A program made the position numbers and the translations under genes. The notes beneath the pieces are model-generated. The model was not told the origin of the DNA and ran no database searches. It was given only the letters and a program-made list of their open reading frames with translations. From NCBI GenBank assembly GCA_016191585.1, contig JACPVU010000018.1, positions 1-44,573 of the forward strand: a DNA stretch of 44,573 bases, given 5' to 3'. Positions 20,695 to 34,708 of this stretch are shown in pieces. Numbering within the stretch: position 1 is the first letter of the stretch; every line of letters starts with the position of its first letter. The stretch is from an archaeon. GTDB lineage: Archaea; Aenigmatarchaeota; Aenigmatarchaeia; GW2011-AR5.

Positions 20695-21072
20695 TCAGGA
20701 AACGCGGACTTCCCTGATGTCTTCGCTCTTTTCCTCGCTGACAGGGCTTATGAGGTCTATCATGTGCTCCATTTCCTTCAGGTCGCGTTTCTGCACGAAC
20801 TTGACGAGCTGCTTGTTCAGTTTTTCAATGGCCATCTTGATGTTTATTATGTCGTTTTCCACTGTCCTCAGAGAAACGTCTGTCTCGGCGAATTTTGTGT
20901 TGGTTTTCTTTGTACGCTCTGACGTTCCCTGAATCAGGATGTTTACCTTGTCTTCTATTGCGTCCATCCTCTGCTCTAACGATCGCAGTCTTCTTACTTC
21001 TTCGTTGCTTCTCCTTACAAGCTCCTGAAGAATTACCTGATAGTTTTCAGTCTGCGCAGCCATAAAAATCAC
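20695..21072 (-). CDS. small coiled-coil protein
   Basis: 125 aa (121 aa from the likely ATG at 21060), helical and heptad-like throughout, ending '...KEMEHMIDLISPV'. It is co-directional with and immediately upstream of 19990..20634. Confidence 0.55.
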   Translation of the reverse strand: MIFMAAQTENYQVILQELVRRSNEEVRRLRSLEQRMDAIEDKVNILIQGTSERTKKTNTKFAETDVSLRTVENDIINIKMAIEKLNKQLVKFVQKRDLKEMEHMIDLISPVSEEKSEDIREVRVS

Positions 21073-21162
21073 TTTTATCTCGACAAAGTCCTGCTTTTAT
21101 AATTATATGCAGCCCTATATAAAAACCACACCCATAAACCGTCGATTTTATTAATTATGAGT

Positions 21163-21253
21163 ATGATCATCTGCGTGAAGGGTATCGTCTATCGATGATA
21201 CCCTTAGCTAGAGCTACTATCAAAGAGATAGTAGCTCTCACGCAGATGATCAT
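21163..21253. repeat. perfect nested inverted repeats (Y-shaped: 16-bp closing stem plus 8-bp and 12-bp hairpins), function unknown
   Basis: ATGATCATCTGCGTGA (21163-21178) pairs with TCACGCAGATGATCAT (21238-21253). Inside are AGGGTATC/GATACCCT and AGAGCTACTATC/GATAGTAGCTCT. No stem has a mismatch. Confidence 0.85.
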
Positions 21254-21448
21254 CATACGTTAAGTTAATACAATCTAATGTGATCCAAATAAAGAATCGG
21301 GATATATAAATTTGGATCACGGTATAGCGCACAAGGAAATTATATACCGTTTATTTCCTTGTAGCACTATAAACCAGCCATTTATTTTAACACGACTATG
21401 AACGTTAGTAAAAATTAATAGTTAGCACAGCAATATGTTACCAGTAAT

Positions 21449-24400
21449 GTGATGCCAATGACTTATGAATACGAATACGACGAGCAGAACCAGAAGATAA
21501 GGATAAACTGCCTCGGCGCTGTACAGGGTTCTAACATAGAGGATTTTCCTGTCTGCATGGCAAAGACGATAGACAACTTGATGGAACTGAAAAAGGTCGC
21601 AAAGATCGTTCTTGTCGACGTACGTGAGTATGAATATGACGTGAGCGAAGCAAGAATGCTGCTTGAGATAGCAAACGCCATTGAGTACATAATAAAGGAA
21701 AAGCTCGTCAGCATGGAAAATATTGTCCTGCCTGGCTGTGAAATGGAATCGCCGGAAAGGTATTCATTTCTGCAGAGATTTCTCAACGACATAAAATACG
21801 ATCCTATCGACGCCTACAAAAAACTCATCCGTGAAATGAGAAAGCAGAAGGTCCGCAGCGAGAGGGAAACTGGCATCGCGAAGGATTGTCATCTTCACTA
21901 CATAAACAATTCACTTATACCGATAAAAACCGCGCTGGATAAATGCAAGATGATACAGCTGGCTGTTCCGCAGCTGGCAGAACACAAGAACCGCTCGCTG
22001 TACAGAAAAATATTTCATCCGACAATAAGGCCGAATTTCATCTATACAAAATACGTATCGCTCCCGCCTCCGCATTCCGAGCTTATTGAAAGATATACTG
22101 TCGGGGAAATGAACGTTGAAATATACAGCGTGCCTGGACAGGTCAGAAAATTCTATCTGGCTATACCGCCTGAGTTCAAGCTCAACGAGACAGAATACAC
22201 GCTGCTGGATACGGCCAGAAGGTATATAGGCCACCACGAGCCGAGGGAAATAGAACTGGCCGAGCCGGAAAGGATAAGAGAAAATCTCTTTAGAATAGGT
22301 GTTGACATAATACGCGACCTTGCTTCGTCACAAAACTATGCAATTTCTGAGTCGAGGATCGAGAAGCTTTCGAAGATACTTGCACGTTACACAGCAGGAC
22401 TTGGCGTGATTGATTTAATACTGCAGGATGAAAACATACAGGACATCGTGATAAACGCGCCTATAGGGTCGTCGCCTGCGTTCATCTTTCACGCAAACCA
22501 CGAGGAATGCGAGACAAATATTGTACCGAGCATAGAAGACGCAGAAACGTGGGCAACGAGATTCCGACTATATTCAGGGCGTCCGTTAGATGAGGCCAAC
22601 CCTGTACTGGATACAGAATTGATAGTGCCAGGAGGCAGGGCTCGTGTCGCTGCTGTAACAAGGACATTGTCGCCTGACGGGCTGGCATTTGCTTTCCGCA
22701 GGCACAGGGACAAGCCGTGGACTTTCCCGCTTTTCATAAAAACGAAGATGATAGACCCGCTCGCAGCAGGGCTTATGTGGTTCCTTATTGACGGTGCAAG
22801 GACCCTGCTCATTGCCGGTACAAGGTCGAGTGGAAAATCCTCATTCTTGGGTGCGTGCATGGTGCAACTGATGCCGAAAATAAGGATAATCAGTACTGAG
22901 GACAGCGTTGCGGGTGATTGTGAAATATTCTATGAGAATCACGGAAAAATAGAAAAATCCACTGTAGGCAATCTTATAGACAGCACCATAGAGAAATATG
23001 GTTGTGACCATGACTTTGACCGGGAGGTTGCCAAGAAAAATCCTGAAAATATAAGGGTATTTTCCATGGACAATAAAGGCAAAATAAAACTATCTAACGT
23101 AAGTTCTTTCATAAGACATAAAACAAAAAAGGACTTATTTGAAATAACTACGCGAACAGGAAGAAAAATAAAGGTAACAGGAGACCACTCTTTGTTTCAT
23201 CTGAATAAAGAAGGAAAAATAGCACCGGTCAAATGCTGCGACCTGAAAATAAATGATTACCTTGCAGTTCCGAGGATTTTGCCGTTTGAAAACAGTCTGG
23301 TCGAATCGCTAGATATTCTTGACTATATAGAAAATGATAAGGATGTTTACCTGCAAGGCGATGGTGTCAGGGATTTTGTAAGACATAACAGGAACGAAAT
23401 AAGGAAACTGGGGTCAAAATCGAATCTGGAGCACTGGACACGCGGCATATTGCCACTGAAAATCACCAGAAAAATAAATTCTCAGCATGGGCTGGAAAAA
23501 GACGTGCAGATAAAATTCGGGAAACATGCCAGACCTTTGCCACGTATAATAATACTCGACAAAGAAATGCTTGAGTTCTTCGGCTTGTGGCTCGCTGACG
23601 GATGTTACGATAAGAATGAAGTCATAATATCCGTAGTTGACGAAGATTCGAGAAATGTTGTGAGAAATATTGCCGCATATCTTGAAATAAAAGTTACCAT
23701 GCATACAGACGGCATATCACTGATACTGCACTCACGTACGCTTAAGCATATGATGAAATGCCTCGGATTTGACGGAAATGCATATACAAAAGAAATTCCA
23801 AAATGGGTCTTCAATCTGTCAAAGAATCAGATAGCACACTTCATGAGGGGCATCTTCAGCGGTGACGGATACCTCACGAACAACGAAGCTGCCATAAATC
23901 TTGTCTCTCAAGGCATGATAAAAGATATCCAGACAATGCTTCTCATGTTTGGCATTACGAGCAGAATAAACAGGATAGGAAAAGATATGACATATTCCTG
24001 CAGGATAAGCCAGCTTGATTCCATAAGAAAATTCGCTTCCATAGGATTTCTCCAGCAATGGAGATTTCAAAAGCTTTCTGAGATGTGCAAAAAAATCTCC
24101 ACCCACGACTCCCCGGATATCGTGCCTTTTTCGAAGGAATTCAAGCTAAAAATACGGGAATCCTATGAAAGTTTTAACTATCACGACTACATTGTTCGCG
24201 GCAATAACATAGGAAGAAACAAATTATTGACAATGACAAAGTCCGTGAATGCACCATCATTAGCTGAAAACCTTTGCCTACTTGCCGAATCGGACATATT
24301 CTGGGATCAGATACGGGAAATAAGACGCATGGAAAACCCTGAAGAATGGGTTTATGATTTTTCTGTGCCTGAATGCGAGAATTTTGTATGTGAAAACATA

Positions 24401-25198
24401 ATTGCTCACAATACACTGGAACTGCCTTTCGACCAGCTGCGCGAGTTGGGATACAACATAGAAAGGCTGAAGTCGCGGTCAGTAATTACGCACGTCGAAA
24501 CAGAGCTGCCAGCAGAAGAGGCGCTGAGAACAGCTCTGCGATTAGGTGACAGCGCGCTGATTGTAGGTGAAATAAGAAGCAAGGAAGCGCTTGCGCTGTA
24601 TGAAGCCATGAGAATAGGCGCCCTGGCTAATATGGTAGCAGGAACAATACACGGAGATTCTGCATACGGAGTTTTTGACCGTGTGGTGAACGACCTTGGC
24701 GTGACTCCGACAAGCTTCAAGGCAACTGACATTGTTCTTGTTGCGAACATGCTGCGTTCGCCTGAAGGCCTGCACGCTTTCAGAAGGGTCGTCGAGATAA
24801 CAGAAGTCAGAAAACACTGGAAGCACGACCCAGCAGAAGAAAACGGCTTCGTTAACTTGTTCGAATATTCTGCAAGGGAAGACATACTCAAGCCGAGCAA
24901 GACGCTCCTGATGGGGGAATCGCAGGTGCTCAATGATATATCGATGCGTATCCGCGAATGGAAGGGAAACTGGAACGCTGTATGGAACAACATACGATTA
25001 AGGTCAAGGATATTGCAGGCAATTGTAGATTATTCTGTCATAAAGAACAGACCTGGTCTTTTGGAAGCTGATTTCGTAGTTGCGTCTAATTCTATGTTCC
25101 ATATAATCAGCTCTGAAGTAAAGGAAGAAGTAGGGGACTTTGACAACGAAGAAATTTTCGAGCGCTGGAACACGTGGATGAAGAAGCAGACGCAGTAA
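21449..25198 (+). CDS. type IV pilus/archaellum-class (FlaI/PilB/VirB11-like) secretion ATPase, interrupted by an intein
   Basis: Walker A 'AGTRSSGKSS'. 'RIISTED|...|TLELPF' restores the conserved IEDT.EL box after intein removal. Walker B 'ALIVGEIR' and His box 'GTIHGDS' are present. The spliced size is about 746 aa. Confidence 0.9.
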   Translation: MMPMTYEYEYDEQNQKIRINCLGAVQGSNIEDFPVCMAKTIDNLMELKKVAKIVLVDVREYEYDVSEARMLLEIANAIEYIIKEKLVSMENIVLPGCEMESPERYSFLQRFLNDIKYDPIDAYKKLIREMRKQKVRSERETGIAKDCHLHYINNSLIPIKTALDKCKMIQLAVPQLAEHKNRSLYRKIFHPTIRPNFIYTKYVSLPPPHSELIERYTVGEMNVEIYSVPGQVRKFYLAIPPEFKLNETEYTLLDTARRYIGHHEPREIELAEPERIRENLFRIGVDIIRDLASSQNYAISESRIEKLSKILARYTAGLGVIDLILQDENIQDIVINAPIGSSPAFIFHANHEECETNIVPSIEDAETWATRFRLYSGRPLDEANPVLDTELIVPGGRARVAAVTRTLSPDGLAFAFRRHRDKPWTFPLFIKTKMIDPLAAGLMWFLIDGARTLLIAGTRSSGKSSFLGACMVQLMPKIRIISTEDSVAGDCEIFYENHGKIEKSTVGNLIDSTIEKYGCDHDFDREVAKKNPENIRVFSMDNKGKIKLSNVSSFIRHKTKKDLFEITTRTGRKIKVTGDHSLFHLNKEGKIAPVKCCDLKINDYLAVPRILPFENSLVESLDILDYIENDKDVYLQGDGVRDFVRHNRNEIRKLGSKSNLEHWTRGILPLKITRKINSQHGLEKDVQIKFGKHARPLPRIIILDKEMLEFFGLWLADGCYDKNEVIISVVDEDSRNVVRNIAAYLEIKVTMHTDGISLILHSRTLKHMMKCLGFDGNAYTKEIPKWVFNLSKNQIAHFMRGIFSGDGYLTNNEAAINLVSQGMIKDIQTMLLMFGITSRINRIGKDMTYSCRISQLDSIRKFASIGFLQQWRFQKLSEMCKKISTHDSPDIVPFSKEFKLKIRESYESFNYHDYIVRGNNIGRNKLLTMTKSVNAPSLAENLCLLAESDIFWDQIREIRRMENPEEWVYDFSVPECENFVCENIIAHNTLELPFDQLRELGYNIERLKSRSVITHVETELPAEEALRTALRLGDSALIVGEIRSKEALALYEAMRIGALANMVAGTIHGDSAYGVFDRVVNDLGVTPTSFKATDIVLVANMLRSPEGLHAFRRVVEITEVRKHWKHDPAEENGFVNLFEYSAREDILKPSKTLLMGESQVLNDISMRIREWKGNWNAVWNNIRLRSRILQAIVDYSVIKNRPGLLEADFVVASNSMFHIISSEVKEEVGDFDNEEIFERWNTWMKKQTQ
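22904..24412 (+). mobile_element. 503-aa intein with a LAGLIDADG homing-endonuclease domain
   Basis: It starts 'SVAGDCEIF' (block A, Ser1), has block B 'VTGDHSLF', LAGLIDADG motifs 'FGLWLADGCY' (about 23580-23610) and 'RGIFSGDGYL' (about 23845-23875), and ends 'VYDFSV...ENIIAHN' followed by the +1 Thr. Confidence 0.9.
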
Positions 25199-25420
25199 TT
25201 CGTATACAAATATTCGAGAATTAGAGTATTGGTTTGGAAAAAGTTATTGTTGAACGCCACATATTTTTTGAAGAATGGTCGTCATGATTTTTTATTCATA
25301 TAATTTTTGAATTCCATTAAATCTATATAAAGTTAGTTGAATATTCTACGCATTCAATTGAACGAGTTGACGAGATTCATCCTGCATCCAGAATCGCAAA
25401 CACTATGTCGTCTTGCCGGC

Positions 25421-27672: not shown

Positions 27673-27855
27673 GATTGAATTCCATATTCGTATAATGATA
27701 GTCAACGTAGACATATACCTCATAGAACTTTGTTCTGTGGGGTCTTGGAAAGCTTTGCTTTCCAAAGACATCAAGGGACGTATATGTCAGCCAGGAGCGT
27801 TATCAAAAATATAATGCTCCTCACGTCGACTATCATATTTTAATGGAATTCAATC
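27673..27855. repeat. 183-nt multi-tier inverted-repeat element with 3 internal hairpins, function unknown
   Basis: Tiers: GATTGAATTCCAT/ATGGAATTCAATC (13 bp), ATGATAGTCAACGT/ACGTCGACTATCAT (14 bp, 1 mismatch) and GACATATAC/GTATATGTC (9 bp). Inner hairpins: AGAAC/GTTCT, GTCTTGGAAAGC/GCTTTCCAAAGAC and AGGAGCGTTAT/ATAATGCTCCT. Confidence 0.85.
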
Positions 27856-33376: not shown

Positions 33377-34164
33377 TTAGAGTTTTATTATATCGTATAC
33401 GACGATTACTTCCCATAAACGTATGATGAAATGTGTTAATAAAACGTCTTTTTCGTCGTTGTATTCGGTAATCACATGTCTTGTGTGAATTCTTCCCGAA
33501 TCTATGTTTCTGAATCTTGGAAACCAGTGTTTTATCCGCCATGTATTTTCTATGTCGTTGTTGTTGTGTTCCTTGAAGCTGATAAATTTGTCGTGTTTTA
33601 CTTCTGGACCAAATACTTCGAAAATTGCTCTCCTGTACGCAGGTAATCCATCTGTTCGTATAATTTTCGGCCAATAGCCAGGAGGAAAACGCCTTCTAGC
33701 TTCCCAAAACAGAAATTTAGCGTCTTGTAAAGTCCGTGTTTTCGATAAGTGTGATGCCACAACTTTCTTCGTTTTTATGCACTTCACTCCCCACAACCAT
33801 GCTTTTTCGCCATTGAAAAGCTCTATCTGTGTTTCGTCTGTTTCCAGCAGTTCTCCAAGACCACGAATTACTTCTCTGTCATCTTTGGCGAATCTTCTGC
33901 ACCATCTGCCTATGGAAGAGATAGATTTTACGACGATATTAAACGCATTTGACACTACTTTTCTGGTCTTTTTCAGGGTAAGACCTTCGTGCCTTATCTC
34001 GACAGCGCTATAGACCTGATTTTTTGGAAATCTCATTCTTTTCCAATCTGTGTCGATAGACTGCCGACCACAACCCCGACACAAAAATTTTGTACAATAC
34101 CCCTGTTTTTTAACTCCCTCTTACCATTCTTTATCATGGCAAGGCCACAATTTGGACATTTCAT
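33377..34164 (-). pseudogene. IS6-family-like DDE transposase, frameshifted between the N-terminal Zn finger and the catalytic core
   Basis: The core ORF 33377..34084 carries 'TDETQIEL', 'IIRTDGLPAYRRAI' and 'NNNDIENTWRIKHW' (a D-D-E pattern). The upstream ATG at 34164 encodes 'MKCPNCGLAMIKNGKRELKNRGIVQNF' in another frame. The two join only if 2 nt are skipped near 34083-34090 ('...QNF-CRGCGRQ'). Confidence 0.7.
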
Positions 34165-34198
34165 AGATTTATCACCTATGAATTCCTGTGGCTTTGCC

Positions 34199-34708
34199 TT
34201 ATAAATCATACGTTAATGGAATTCTATCCGGTGTTGCTATCAGGATCTCCTTACCGGTTTCTAACAGTATTTTTTGGACAGTATCGGTAGATTCTCCGTG
34301 GTCAAAAATATCGTCAATTATAATTGCTTCGTCGTGTTGTTTCAGATGCTCTATTGCCTGCTCGACGTCAACGCTATCCACTTTTGGTTTGCCTGCAACG
34401 CCTATTCCACCAGTGCCGTACCTGCTTATTTTTATCGGAACGTAGTCTATTTCCTCGCCTTCTCTTGTGCACAATACTTTCCTAAAACCACCGCTCACGT
34501 ACAAAAATATCTGGCTGCCGCCGCGCATGAGCGGGAGAAGAAGGGGCTTTTTCTCTTTGTATTTTTCTTCGCGGTCATTAAGTATTTTTTTTGTAAGTTC
34601 ATAGGAATGTGCGGCTATTCTGAACGGTGTCACGGGCTCAAGGTAGAAGCCGTCTTTGATAAGTATACCATCCCTTTCTTTCCATGTCATACCATAAGAA
34701 TAAACCAA
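34199..34708 (-). CDS. phosphoribosyltransferase (purine PRT-like)
   Basis: PRPP-binding loop 'AIIIDDIFDHGESTDTV'. 169 aa. Confidence 0.75.
   Translation of the reverse strand: MVYSYGMTWKERDGILIKDGFYLEPVTPFRIAAHSYELTKKILNDREEKYKEKKPLLLPLMRGGSQIFLYVSGGFRKVLCTREGEEIDYVPIKISRYGTGGIGVAGKPKVDSVDVEQAIEHLKQHDEAIIIDDIFDHGESTDTVQKILLETGKEILIATPDRIPLTYDL

Follow-up and report, generated by a model that had tools for sequence, protein, structure and literature searches.

Several families of short, non-coding, multi-copy intergenic elements are known in prokaryotes, such as SM1-SM4 of Sulfolobus, Correia/NEMIS, ERIC, RUP and BOX. The Sulfolobus elements and other prokaryotic MITEs have terminal inverted repeats, target duplications and stable hairpins, and are mobilized in trans by a resident insertion sequence. 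The IS6 family of insertion sequences generates 8-bp target duplications and only two of its MITEs, of 227 and 336 bp, had been catalogued in 2021 (PMC7986276). A literature search found no paper that connects the Aenigmarchaeota with MITEs. Here we describe two elements of this short, non-coding, multi-copy, intergenic kind, termed MITE 1 and MITE 2, which lie side by side upstream of a type IV pilus-like ATPase gene in an archaeon of this group.

The stretch of DNA that was analyzed (the window, 44,573 nt) is contig C3 of the source genome, G000 (756 kb in 105 contigs, 69% complete). Contigs given below without a genome prefix belong to G000, while G001 and G002 are relatives of the same genus that were used for comparison of the orthologous spacer. 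In the spacer between the ATPase gene and a divergent gene for a coiled-coil protein, an earlier note had described a Y-shaped inverted repeat followed by two hairpins, here hp2 and hp3, which were proposed to be a mobile MITE-like element, a structured small RNA, or stacked operator sites. Our analysis indicates, with a probability of about 0.87, that the hairpins are two abutting MITEs, that is, ordinary mobile DNA and not a regulator of the ATPase. The coordinates of the features are given in Table 1.

Table 1. Features of the locus, of the rest of the window and of family B in the source genome.
Feature	Position	Strand	Basis or remark
MITE 1, 132 nt, non-coding, probably IS6-family-derived	21144..21275	+	Alignment with copies in G000 (C88, C12), G002, G032 and G039
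MITE 1 terminal repeats, 24 nt	left 21144-21167, right 21252-21275		Match the ends of IS6-like elements
Left target-site duplication of MITE 1 (TAAACCGTC)	21135..21143	.	Abuts the left terminal repeat
Remainder of right target duplication of MITE 1 (AACCAGC)	21372..21378	.	Parted from MITE 1 by MITE 2
Y-shaped three-way-junction core	21163..21253	+	16-bp closing stem, two 12-bp hairpins joined by AGCT; folds and covariation
MITE 2, 96 nt	21276..21371	+	TA at each end (21276-77, 21370-71); holds hp2 (21280-21320) and hp3 (21331-21362)
Sibling MITE, 183 nt, same terminal-repeat type (GATTGAATTCCAT...)	27673..27855	+	Terminal-repeat table; Y-like core 27710-27788 from census
Decayed IS6-family insertion sequence	33377..34228	-	Transposase gene and left terminal repeat 34205-34228 (GATAGAATTCCATTAACGTATGAT)
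T2SSE-type (type IV pilus-like) ATPase gene, intein-containing	21458..25198	+	Pfam T2SSE, Intein_splicing, LAGLIDADG_3
Divergent coiled-coil protein gene, small	20695..21063	-	ORF list and sequence; conserved in G001 and G002
Family B copies, G000	C105:729-863, C16:8000-8091, C72:2206-2294, C6:7951-8091, C85:2616-2704

All three inverted repeats were located where they had been described and their stems are perfect, with 16 fully complementary bp in the closing stem of the Y (21163-21178/21238-21253), 11 bp in hp2 (GTGATCCAAAT/ATTTGGATCAC, 21280-21290/21310-21320) and 10 bp in hp3 (ACAAGGAAAT/ATTTCCTTGT, 21331-21340/21353-21362). The inner hairpins of the Y had been given as 8 and 12 bp without a mismatch; the second indeed consists of 12 perfect bp, but the first also has 12 bp on the + strand, made up of 9 Watson-Crick pairs, one G.T and two more pairs. 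As RNA, positions 21155-21262 (108 nt) fold with -62.2 kcal/mol compared to -23.7 +/- 3.3 for dinucleotide shuffles (z = -11.6, with none of 200 shuffles reaching this energy), the - strand folds nearly equally (z = -11.5), and for a DNA fold of the entire 376-nt spacer z is -10.1. Both structures extend beyond these stems. The inverted repeat of the Y continues outwards, imperfectly, to 21144-21275, such that MITE 1 is one long imperfect hairpin of ~132 nt with the Y at its tip, and the outer end of the previously described closing stem is formed by the innermost five bases of each MITE 1 terminal repeat (ATGAT/ATCAT). The hp3 stem extends, with a bulge, to ~21323-21371, and its loop reads BRE/TATA-like GGAAATTATATA. 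The Y and the two hairpins had been treated as one region. Instead, they belong to two unrelated elements (132 and 96 nt, with no ORF inside either) that differ in their ends, in their target duplications and in how they are distributed.

MITE 1 begins GATTGTATTAAC, finishes GTTAATACAATC, and its right end reads GATTGTATTAACTTAACGTATGAT. On the right flank, the end of MITE 1 is followed in order by TA, MITE 2, TA and AACCAGC. Removal of MITE 2 and one TA yields a right copy of the target duplication, TAAACCAGC (TA plus AACCAGC), that matches the left flank in register at seven of nine positions, a match that depends on this removal. The MITE 1 copy at this locus is without a clean target duplication. 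The two flanks are in register only when one of the TAs is counted as target sequence, and this supports duplication of TA by MITE 2. Exact direct repeats flank the sister copies on C51 (AGGTAAAT), C14 (ATTATTCT), G039:C11 (AAAGATTAA) and G032:C42 (AAATCAGC), that of the C88 copy is TAATTCAG, and others in G067, G001, G033, G021 and G061 are GACAGAAG, GTCACATG, GGTAATTT, TATTCACC, CCTGCTAA, ATTTATTA and AGAGAAGA. More than 12 sister copies of MITE 1 have exact or near-exact target duplications of 8-9 bp, where the chance expectation for an exact 8-bp abutting repeat is ~1.5e-5 per element.

In addition to the 183-nt sibling MITE, the window contains a solo end-like sequence, TTTGAATTCCATTAAATCTAT, at 25306-25325, which is inverted relative to the right end of the sibling, and the two together bracket the gene for the platform (T2SSF-like) protein. 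An inversion of this sort is what IS6-type intramolecular replicative transposition would leave.

The boundaries of MITE 2 were defined by an alignment of 23 copies from 14 genomes, in which they are sharp, the flanks are unrelated, and the outermost TA is invariant on both sides. Its terminal repeats of 6-8 nt covary between copies (TTATAG...CTATAA versus TTAATG...CATTAA). Many copies of the element exist, in at least 20 genomes, and in the 1.2-Mb genome of G006 its 5' end gave ~97 matches (~1 per 12 kb) compared to 0 for the reversed-pattern control; in the G006 copies, hp2 and hp3 are separated by an additional block with a hairpin. Matches to the hp3 pattern are almost all in MAGs of Candidatus Aenigmatarchaeota, GW2011_AR5 among them, and on this basis the source organism is assigned to that DPANN phylum. 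Because the hp3 loop is BRE/TATA-like, promoter donation was considered as a general role. However, the gene on the hp3 side of MITE 2 shows its start in 10 cases and its end in 10, and since this orientation is random the loop is not a general promoter donor.

A parent element for MITE 2 was searched for and not found. Inverted pairs of its 5' end that are 1.5-3 kb apart in G006 proved to be independent MITEs flanking normal genes. The IS630-type DDE_3 (PF13358) transposase, also considered as the parent, occurs in G000 only on C19 and C93, with ends that mismatch those of MITE 2; PF13358 was not found in G006, G020, G027 or G056, and in G006, where a DDE_3 transposase was not detectable, the IS6-like gene is a fragment only. 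Each of these two very short contigs, C19 (1257 nt) and C93 (1111 nt), is made up of one gene for an IS630-type (DDE_3) transposase with TA on its flanks and with element ends that begin TACTCAAC and TACTTCAC and resemble the TAGTGAAC of MITE 2 at only six of eight positions, and these contigs may be mis-binned. Separately, transposase-like ORFs are located 1-1.5 kb from MITE 2 copies at C21:8643-9686 (-) and C25:7390-8793 (+), and by their N-terminal sequences they look like IS110-type and DUF772/IS5- or IS1182-type transposases.

The spacer of the locus had been noted as unusually long, and it is indeed 394 nt from ATG to ATG compared to 128 nt in G002, where neither MITE 1 nor MITE 2 is present, an empty site in a comparison between species of one genus and not between strains. 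The two insertions are the reason for this length, since their removal (394 - 141 (132+9) - 96 (94+2)) leaves ~157 nt and fully accounts for it. The ATPase gene, for which starts at 21449 and 21452 are alternatives to the 21458 picked from the alignment with G001 and G002, retains ~86 nt of native upstream sequence downstream of both insertions with an AT-rich TATA-like box near 21406-21420, and the TATA-like boxes of the coiled-coil gene (~21098-21126) are to the left of both insertions. The boxes of both genes are therefore outside the inserted DNA, and the ATPase locus appears to need neither element. The orthologous spacer of G001 contains a different Y-shaped element, without hp2 or hp3, which entered this ATPase spacer independently. 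It is on the '-' strand of G001:C13 (L007), at ~2050-2170 of the locus, with a closing stem of ATACAGTATCTC.GAAAGT and the hairpins GGATTACTGCC and GAGGTATACGCC.

The link of MITE 1 to the IS6 family is provided by the decayed insertion sequence in the window, which is its closest autonomous-type relative. The transposase of this element (33377-34084) matches Pfam PF13610 DDE_Tnp_IS240 with 32.8 bits (cut-off 27) and is frameshifted, and a matching right end was searched for and not found. Homologs of the transposase are present in 12 of 61 relatives. The MITE end on G001:C4, GATAGAATTCCATTAAAGTATGAT, is identical to the left end of the window element at 23 of 24 positions, and the intact IS6-like elements at G046:C64 and G007:C49, the latter with a target duplication, have MITE-type ends on both sides that begin GGTT or GATT. 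The ends of the MITE 1 copy and of the window element begin GAT, not the typical GG of IS6, and of the family motifs only TTGTAT is retained. Most sister copies in the relatives have a second, canonical IS6-type end (GGCTCTGTTGAAA..., type 1) around the same core, and the same Y core is found between GGCTCTGT-type and GATTGTATT-type ends. MITE 1 is probably mobilized in trans by an IS6-like transposase. An IS6 transposase is absent from the assemblies of several MITE-rich genomes, including G001 (97% complete) and G039, and hence the helper is absent, unassembled or external in these cases. Among the more distant IS6 homologs whose ends were compared (L095, L096 and L098), none matches the MITE ends. 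A second IS6-like lineage, with 39% identity to the window transposase and the left end GG(T/A)TTAACTCCAATTCTAGCATGAT, is represented by C79:1-750 and L098 (G067:C76), and the G067 copy is directly after an apparent tRNA 3' end (GGTTCGAGTCC).

That these elements are dispersed was evident from the genome-wide search for further copies that the earlier note had suggested. In a BLAST search of G000, the Y was found again on C85 (90% identity) and more diverged Y-shaped relatives on C21, C57 and C14, and the hp2-hp3 block recurs as a single unit on C21, C25 and C105. Many copies accompanied by target duplications, which according to that note would indicate a plain MITE, are what the source genome contains, and the proposal of a mobile palindromic element is borne out by these together with the empty site in G002. 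A census of hairpin pairs inside a perfect closing stem counted ~25 Y-shaped elements in the 756 kb, from at least two families. MITE 1 belongs to family A, whose junction motifs are GTGA(G/A) - hairpin - TAGCT - hairpin - (C/T)AC. Of the 70 genomes of the order that were searched with a covariance model, 22 contain the Y core, a patchy distribution, with bursts of 65, 56 and 37 strand-hits in G001, G067 and G039, where many equal-scoring copies are near contig ends; one genome has >25 equal-scoring copies, often at contig ends. Decayed Y copies are also present (C57:11405, hairpin A of C74, and C12), and these are expected for junk DNA after insertion.

Family B is a second and more numerous family of Y-shaped MITEs, with ends that read (G)ATACTGTCAACTTAAG and >20 copies in both orientations, one of which lies between rpl21e and rpoF, archaeal genes that G000 carries. 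Its copies are flanked by direct repeats of 9-11 bp, such as AAATATCGA at C72 and CGGGTCGCAGA at C6. The same layout of a closing stem plus two hairpins is found in family B and in the MITE 2 family as well as in the Y. A parent element of family B was not found: the candidate full-length element between the ends at C34:5061/6077 proved to be an ordinary RNase H gene with a solo end-like site on either side. A search of 61 genomes for an autonomous element by means of paired GATTGTATTAACT ends gave pairs of MITE length only, the remainder being at control level. Some MITE hairpin loops of G000 carry additional sequence. A similar cassette of a small hairpin followed by GT(T/C)TGTTTT is found inside loops at C88:2326-2447 (family A), C78:8244-8356 (family B) and C57:11405-11500, and C105:729-863 and C6:7951-8091 have another insert of ~50 nt in common. 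Such cassettes within MITE hairpin loops, like the additional block in the G006 copies of MITE 2, suggest that hairpin units are exchanged as modules or inserted into one another.

The covariation analysis that had been proposed as a check supports the helices of both elements by compensated changes. The Y core was compared in 13 copies taken from five genomes; 97.8% of the cells are paired and 29 of 37 pairs have changed on both sides, compared to a pairing of 24-47% when the partner columns were slid, and 121 compensated cells stand against ~10 G.U cells. In MITE 2, 97.9% of the cells in hp2 and the extended hp3 are paired and 12 of 27 pairs have changed on both sides. Between the Y stems of C3 and C85, the only differences are three double changes, each fully compensated, and a single change from a wobble to a Watson-Crick pair. 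Since the stems change by compensated substitutions across copies, their pairing is selected, and the fold of both elements is probably under selection for propagation. Such selection would act on the propagating lineages and not on each inserted copy, with old copies left to decay. Since G.U pairs are so scarce, the constraint seems to operate on the DNA itself or on both strands. A recently acquired or mobile element had been one of the options for which the perfect stems were said to argue, but recency is not simply implied by stems that are maintained by compensation.

The Y core could accordingly be more than passive cargo, a proposal that would add to the MITE reading and not replace it. 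As a structure-dependent module, it might be a cis-acting fold for transposition, for example one in which single-stranded DNA folds back to unite both ends, or else an insulator, a terminator or a similar element, at the RNA or DNA level, that is carried by different transposon ends. If the interior were plain junk, compensatory conservation of this strength, and in combination with at least two kinds of terminal repeat, would not be expected, and the junction bases (GTGA, TAGCT, yAC) are conserved while the helices, almost purely Watson-Crick, vary. The identical type of core on GGCTCTGT-type and GATTGTATT-type ends and the recurrence of the same design in family B and in the TA element are consistent with such a module, as are the many type-1 copies whose closing stems have an A-run and a T-run and so resemble two-way terminators. 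However, the MITE 1 copy at the locus is without a T-run, decayed copies are tolerated, terminal repeats of the same type also hold other cargo (C60:15018, C8:3210), and the scarcity of G.U argues against a constraint purely at the RNA level. We consider a functional module of this type rather unlikely.

That the elements are one or more structured small RNAs that regulate the pilus ATPase or the divergent coiled-coil genes is very improbable. The folds are very stable and their helices are backed by covariation, and the + strand is the better fit for the G.T of the first hairpin and for a G.T that recurs at the junction, while model scores on one strand exceed those on the other by 8-13 bits. 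On the other hand, no Rfam family matched anywhere in the window at the gathering score, the best hits being hairpin noise far under threshold (only noise at E up to 1), and a tRNA/tmRNA search gave none. The elements are missing from the orthologous spacer of G002 and replaced by a different one in G001, dozens of copies adjoin unrelated genes, MITE 2 is oriented 10:10 to its neighbors, and the almost exclusive Watson-Crick pairing is unusual under an RNA-only constraint. The weakest proposal, stacked operators for dimeric regulators of the divergent promoters, has perfect palindromes between two divergent genes and the BRE/TATA-like GGAAATTATATA in its favor but is barely credible, given that the orthologous G002 spacer has neither element, that the TATA-like boxes of both genes are outside the insertions, that there is no orientation bias toward downstream gene starts, and that the copies have no common recognition sequence because their hairpin sequences differ completely while pairing is kept.

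Based on the two-MITE explanation, the history of the locus may be reconstructed as follows. MITE 1 would be non-autonomous, either derived from an IS6-family insertion sequence or a partner of one. An IS6-type DDE transposase, provided in trans, presumably binds and cuts at its 24-nt ends, and its insertion would duplicate 8 (sometimes 9) bp of target, the Y core being the cargo between the ends. MITE 2 would represent a second family that targets and duplicates TA in the manner of IS630/Tc1-type elements. Both are likely to have landed, one next to the other, in a neutral part at the center of the divergent promoter spacer, MITE 1 first, duplicating TAAACCGTC, and MITE 2 next, into the TA of the right copy.

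This interpretation removes a false lead, in that the hairpins ahead of the pilus ATPase gene are inserted DNA and not its control region. It also documents active or recently active MITE families in the Aenigmatarchaeota, whose genomes of ~1 Mb are usually thought to be streamlined, and connects one such family with the IS6-type insertion sequences, which have very few catalogued MITEs. MAG assemblies are broken by these repeats, as many copies are at contig ends, and the repeats may also drive rearrangements, for example around the neighboring platform gene. The one feature that is worth follow-up is the three-way-junction core that is common to different IS6-like ends, and its strict compensatory upkeep raises the question of the substrate needs of these transposases. 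If the Y were a selected module, it would imply a step involving folded DNA in transposition by archaeal IS6-like enzymes or, alternatively, a role at the host level such as a two-way transcription barrier, as well as a modular exchange of hairpin cassettes between MITE families.

Compared to known systems, MITE 2 resembles the Stowaway-like MITEs of IS630/Tc1-mariner elements in its high copy number and in the TA at both ends that behaves as a duplicated target. Its short terminal repeats begin with TA followed by yAGTG, similar to the CAGTG-type ends of Tc1. A matching transposase for MITE 2 was not found, and for this reason its membership in IS630/Tc1 is a lead only. A three-way-junction core that is kept by compensation and is common to different ends is, to our knowledge, undescribed in the Sulfolobus SM1-SM4, Correia/NEMIS, ERIC, RUP and BOX families.

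MITE 1 is closest to the IS6/IS26 group (Varani et al., 2021, PMC7986276), which is already known from archaea. Its relatives likewise make 8-bp target duplications, the GGCTCTGTTGAAA ends of most sister copies fit the GG tip, cTGTt and caaa of the family, and the partner transposase combines DDE_Tnp_IS240 with an N-terminal zinc finger, as seen in some IS6 clades. In contrast, the ends of the MITE 1 copy are of the second type (GATTGTATT...AACGTATGAT, 24 nt) with a GA start instead of GG, the element is just 132 nt compared to 227 and 336 bp for the catalogued MITEs, it holds a conserved Y-shaped core, and its host is a DPANN archaeon. IS6/IS26 elements move via cointegrates, and the route by which the 132-nt MITE 1 became a simple insertion can only be inferred. 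In its design, the Y is analogous to the T-shaped terminal hairpins of parvoviruses, which also have an outer palindrome around two small internal palindromes. The likeness is one of design only, since the MITEs described here, unlike the parvovirus hairpins, have target duplications and transposon ends, are dispersed in archaeal chromosomes, and have no role as a replication origin.
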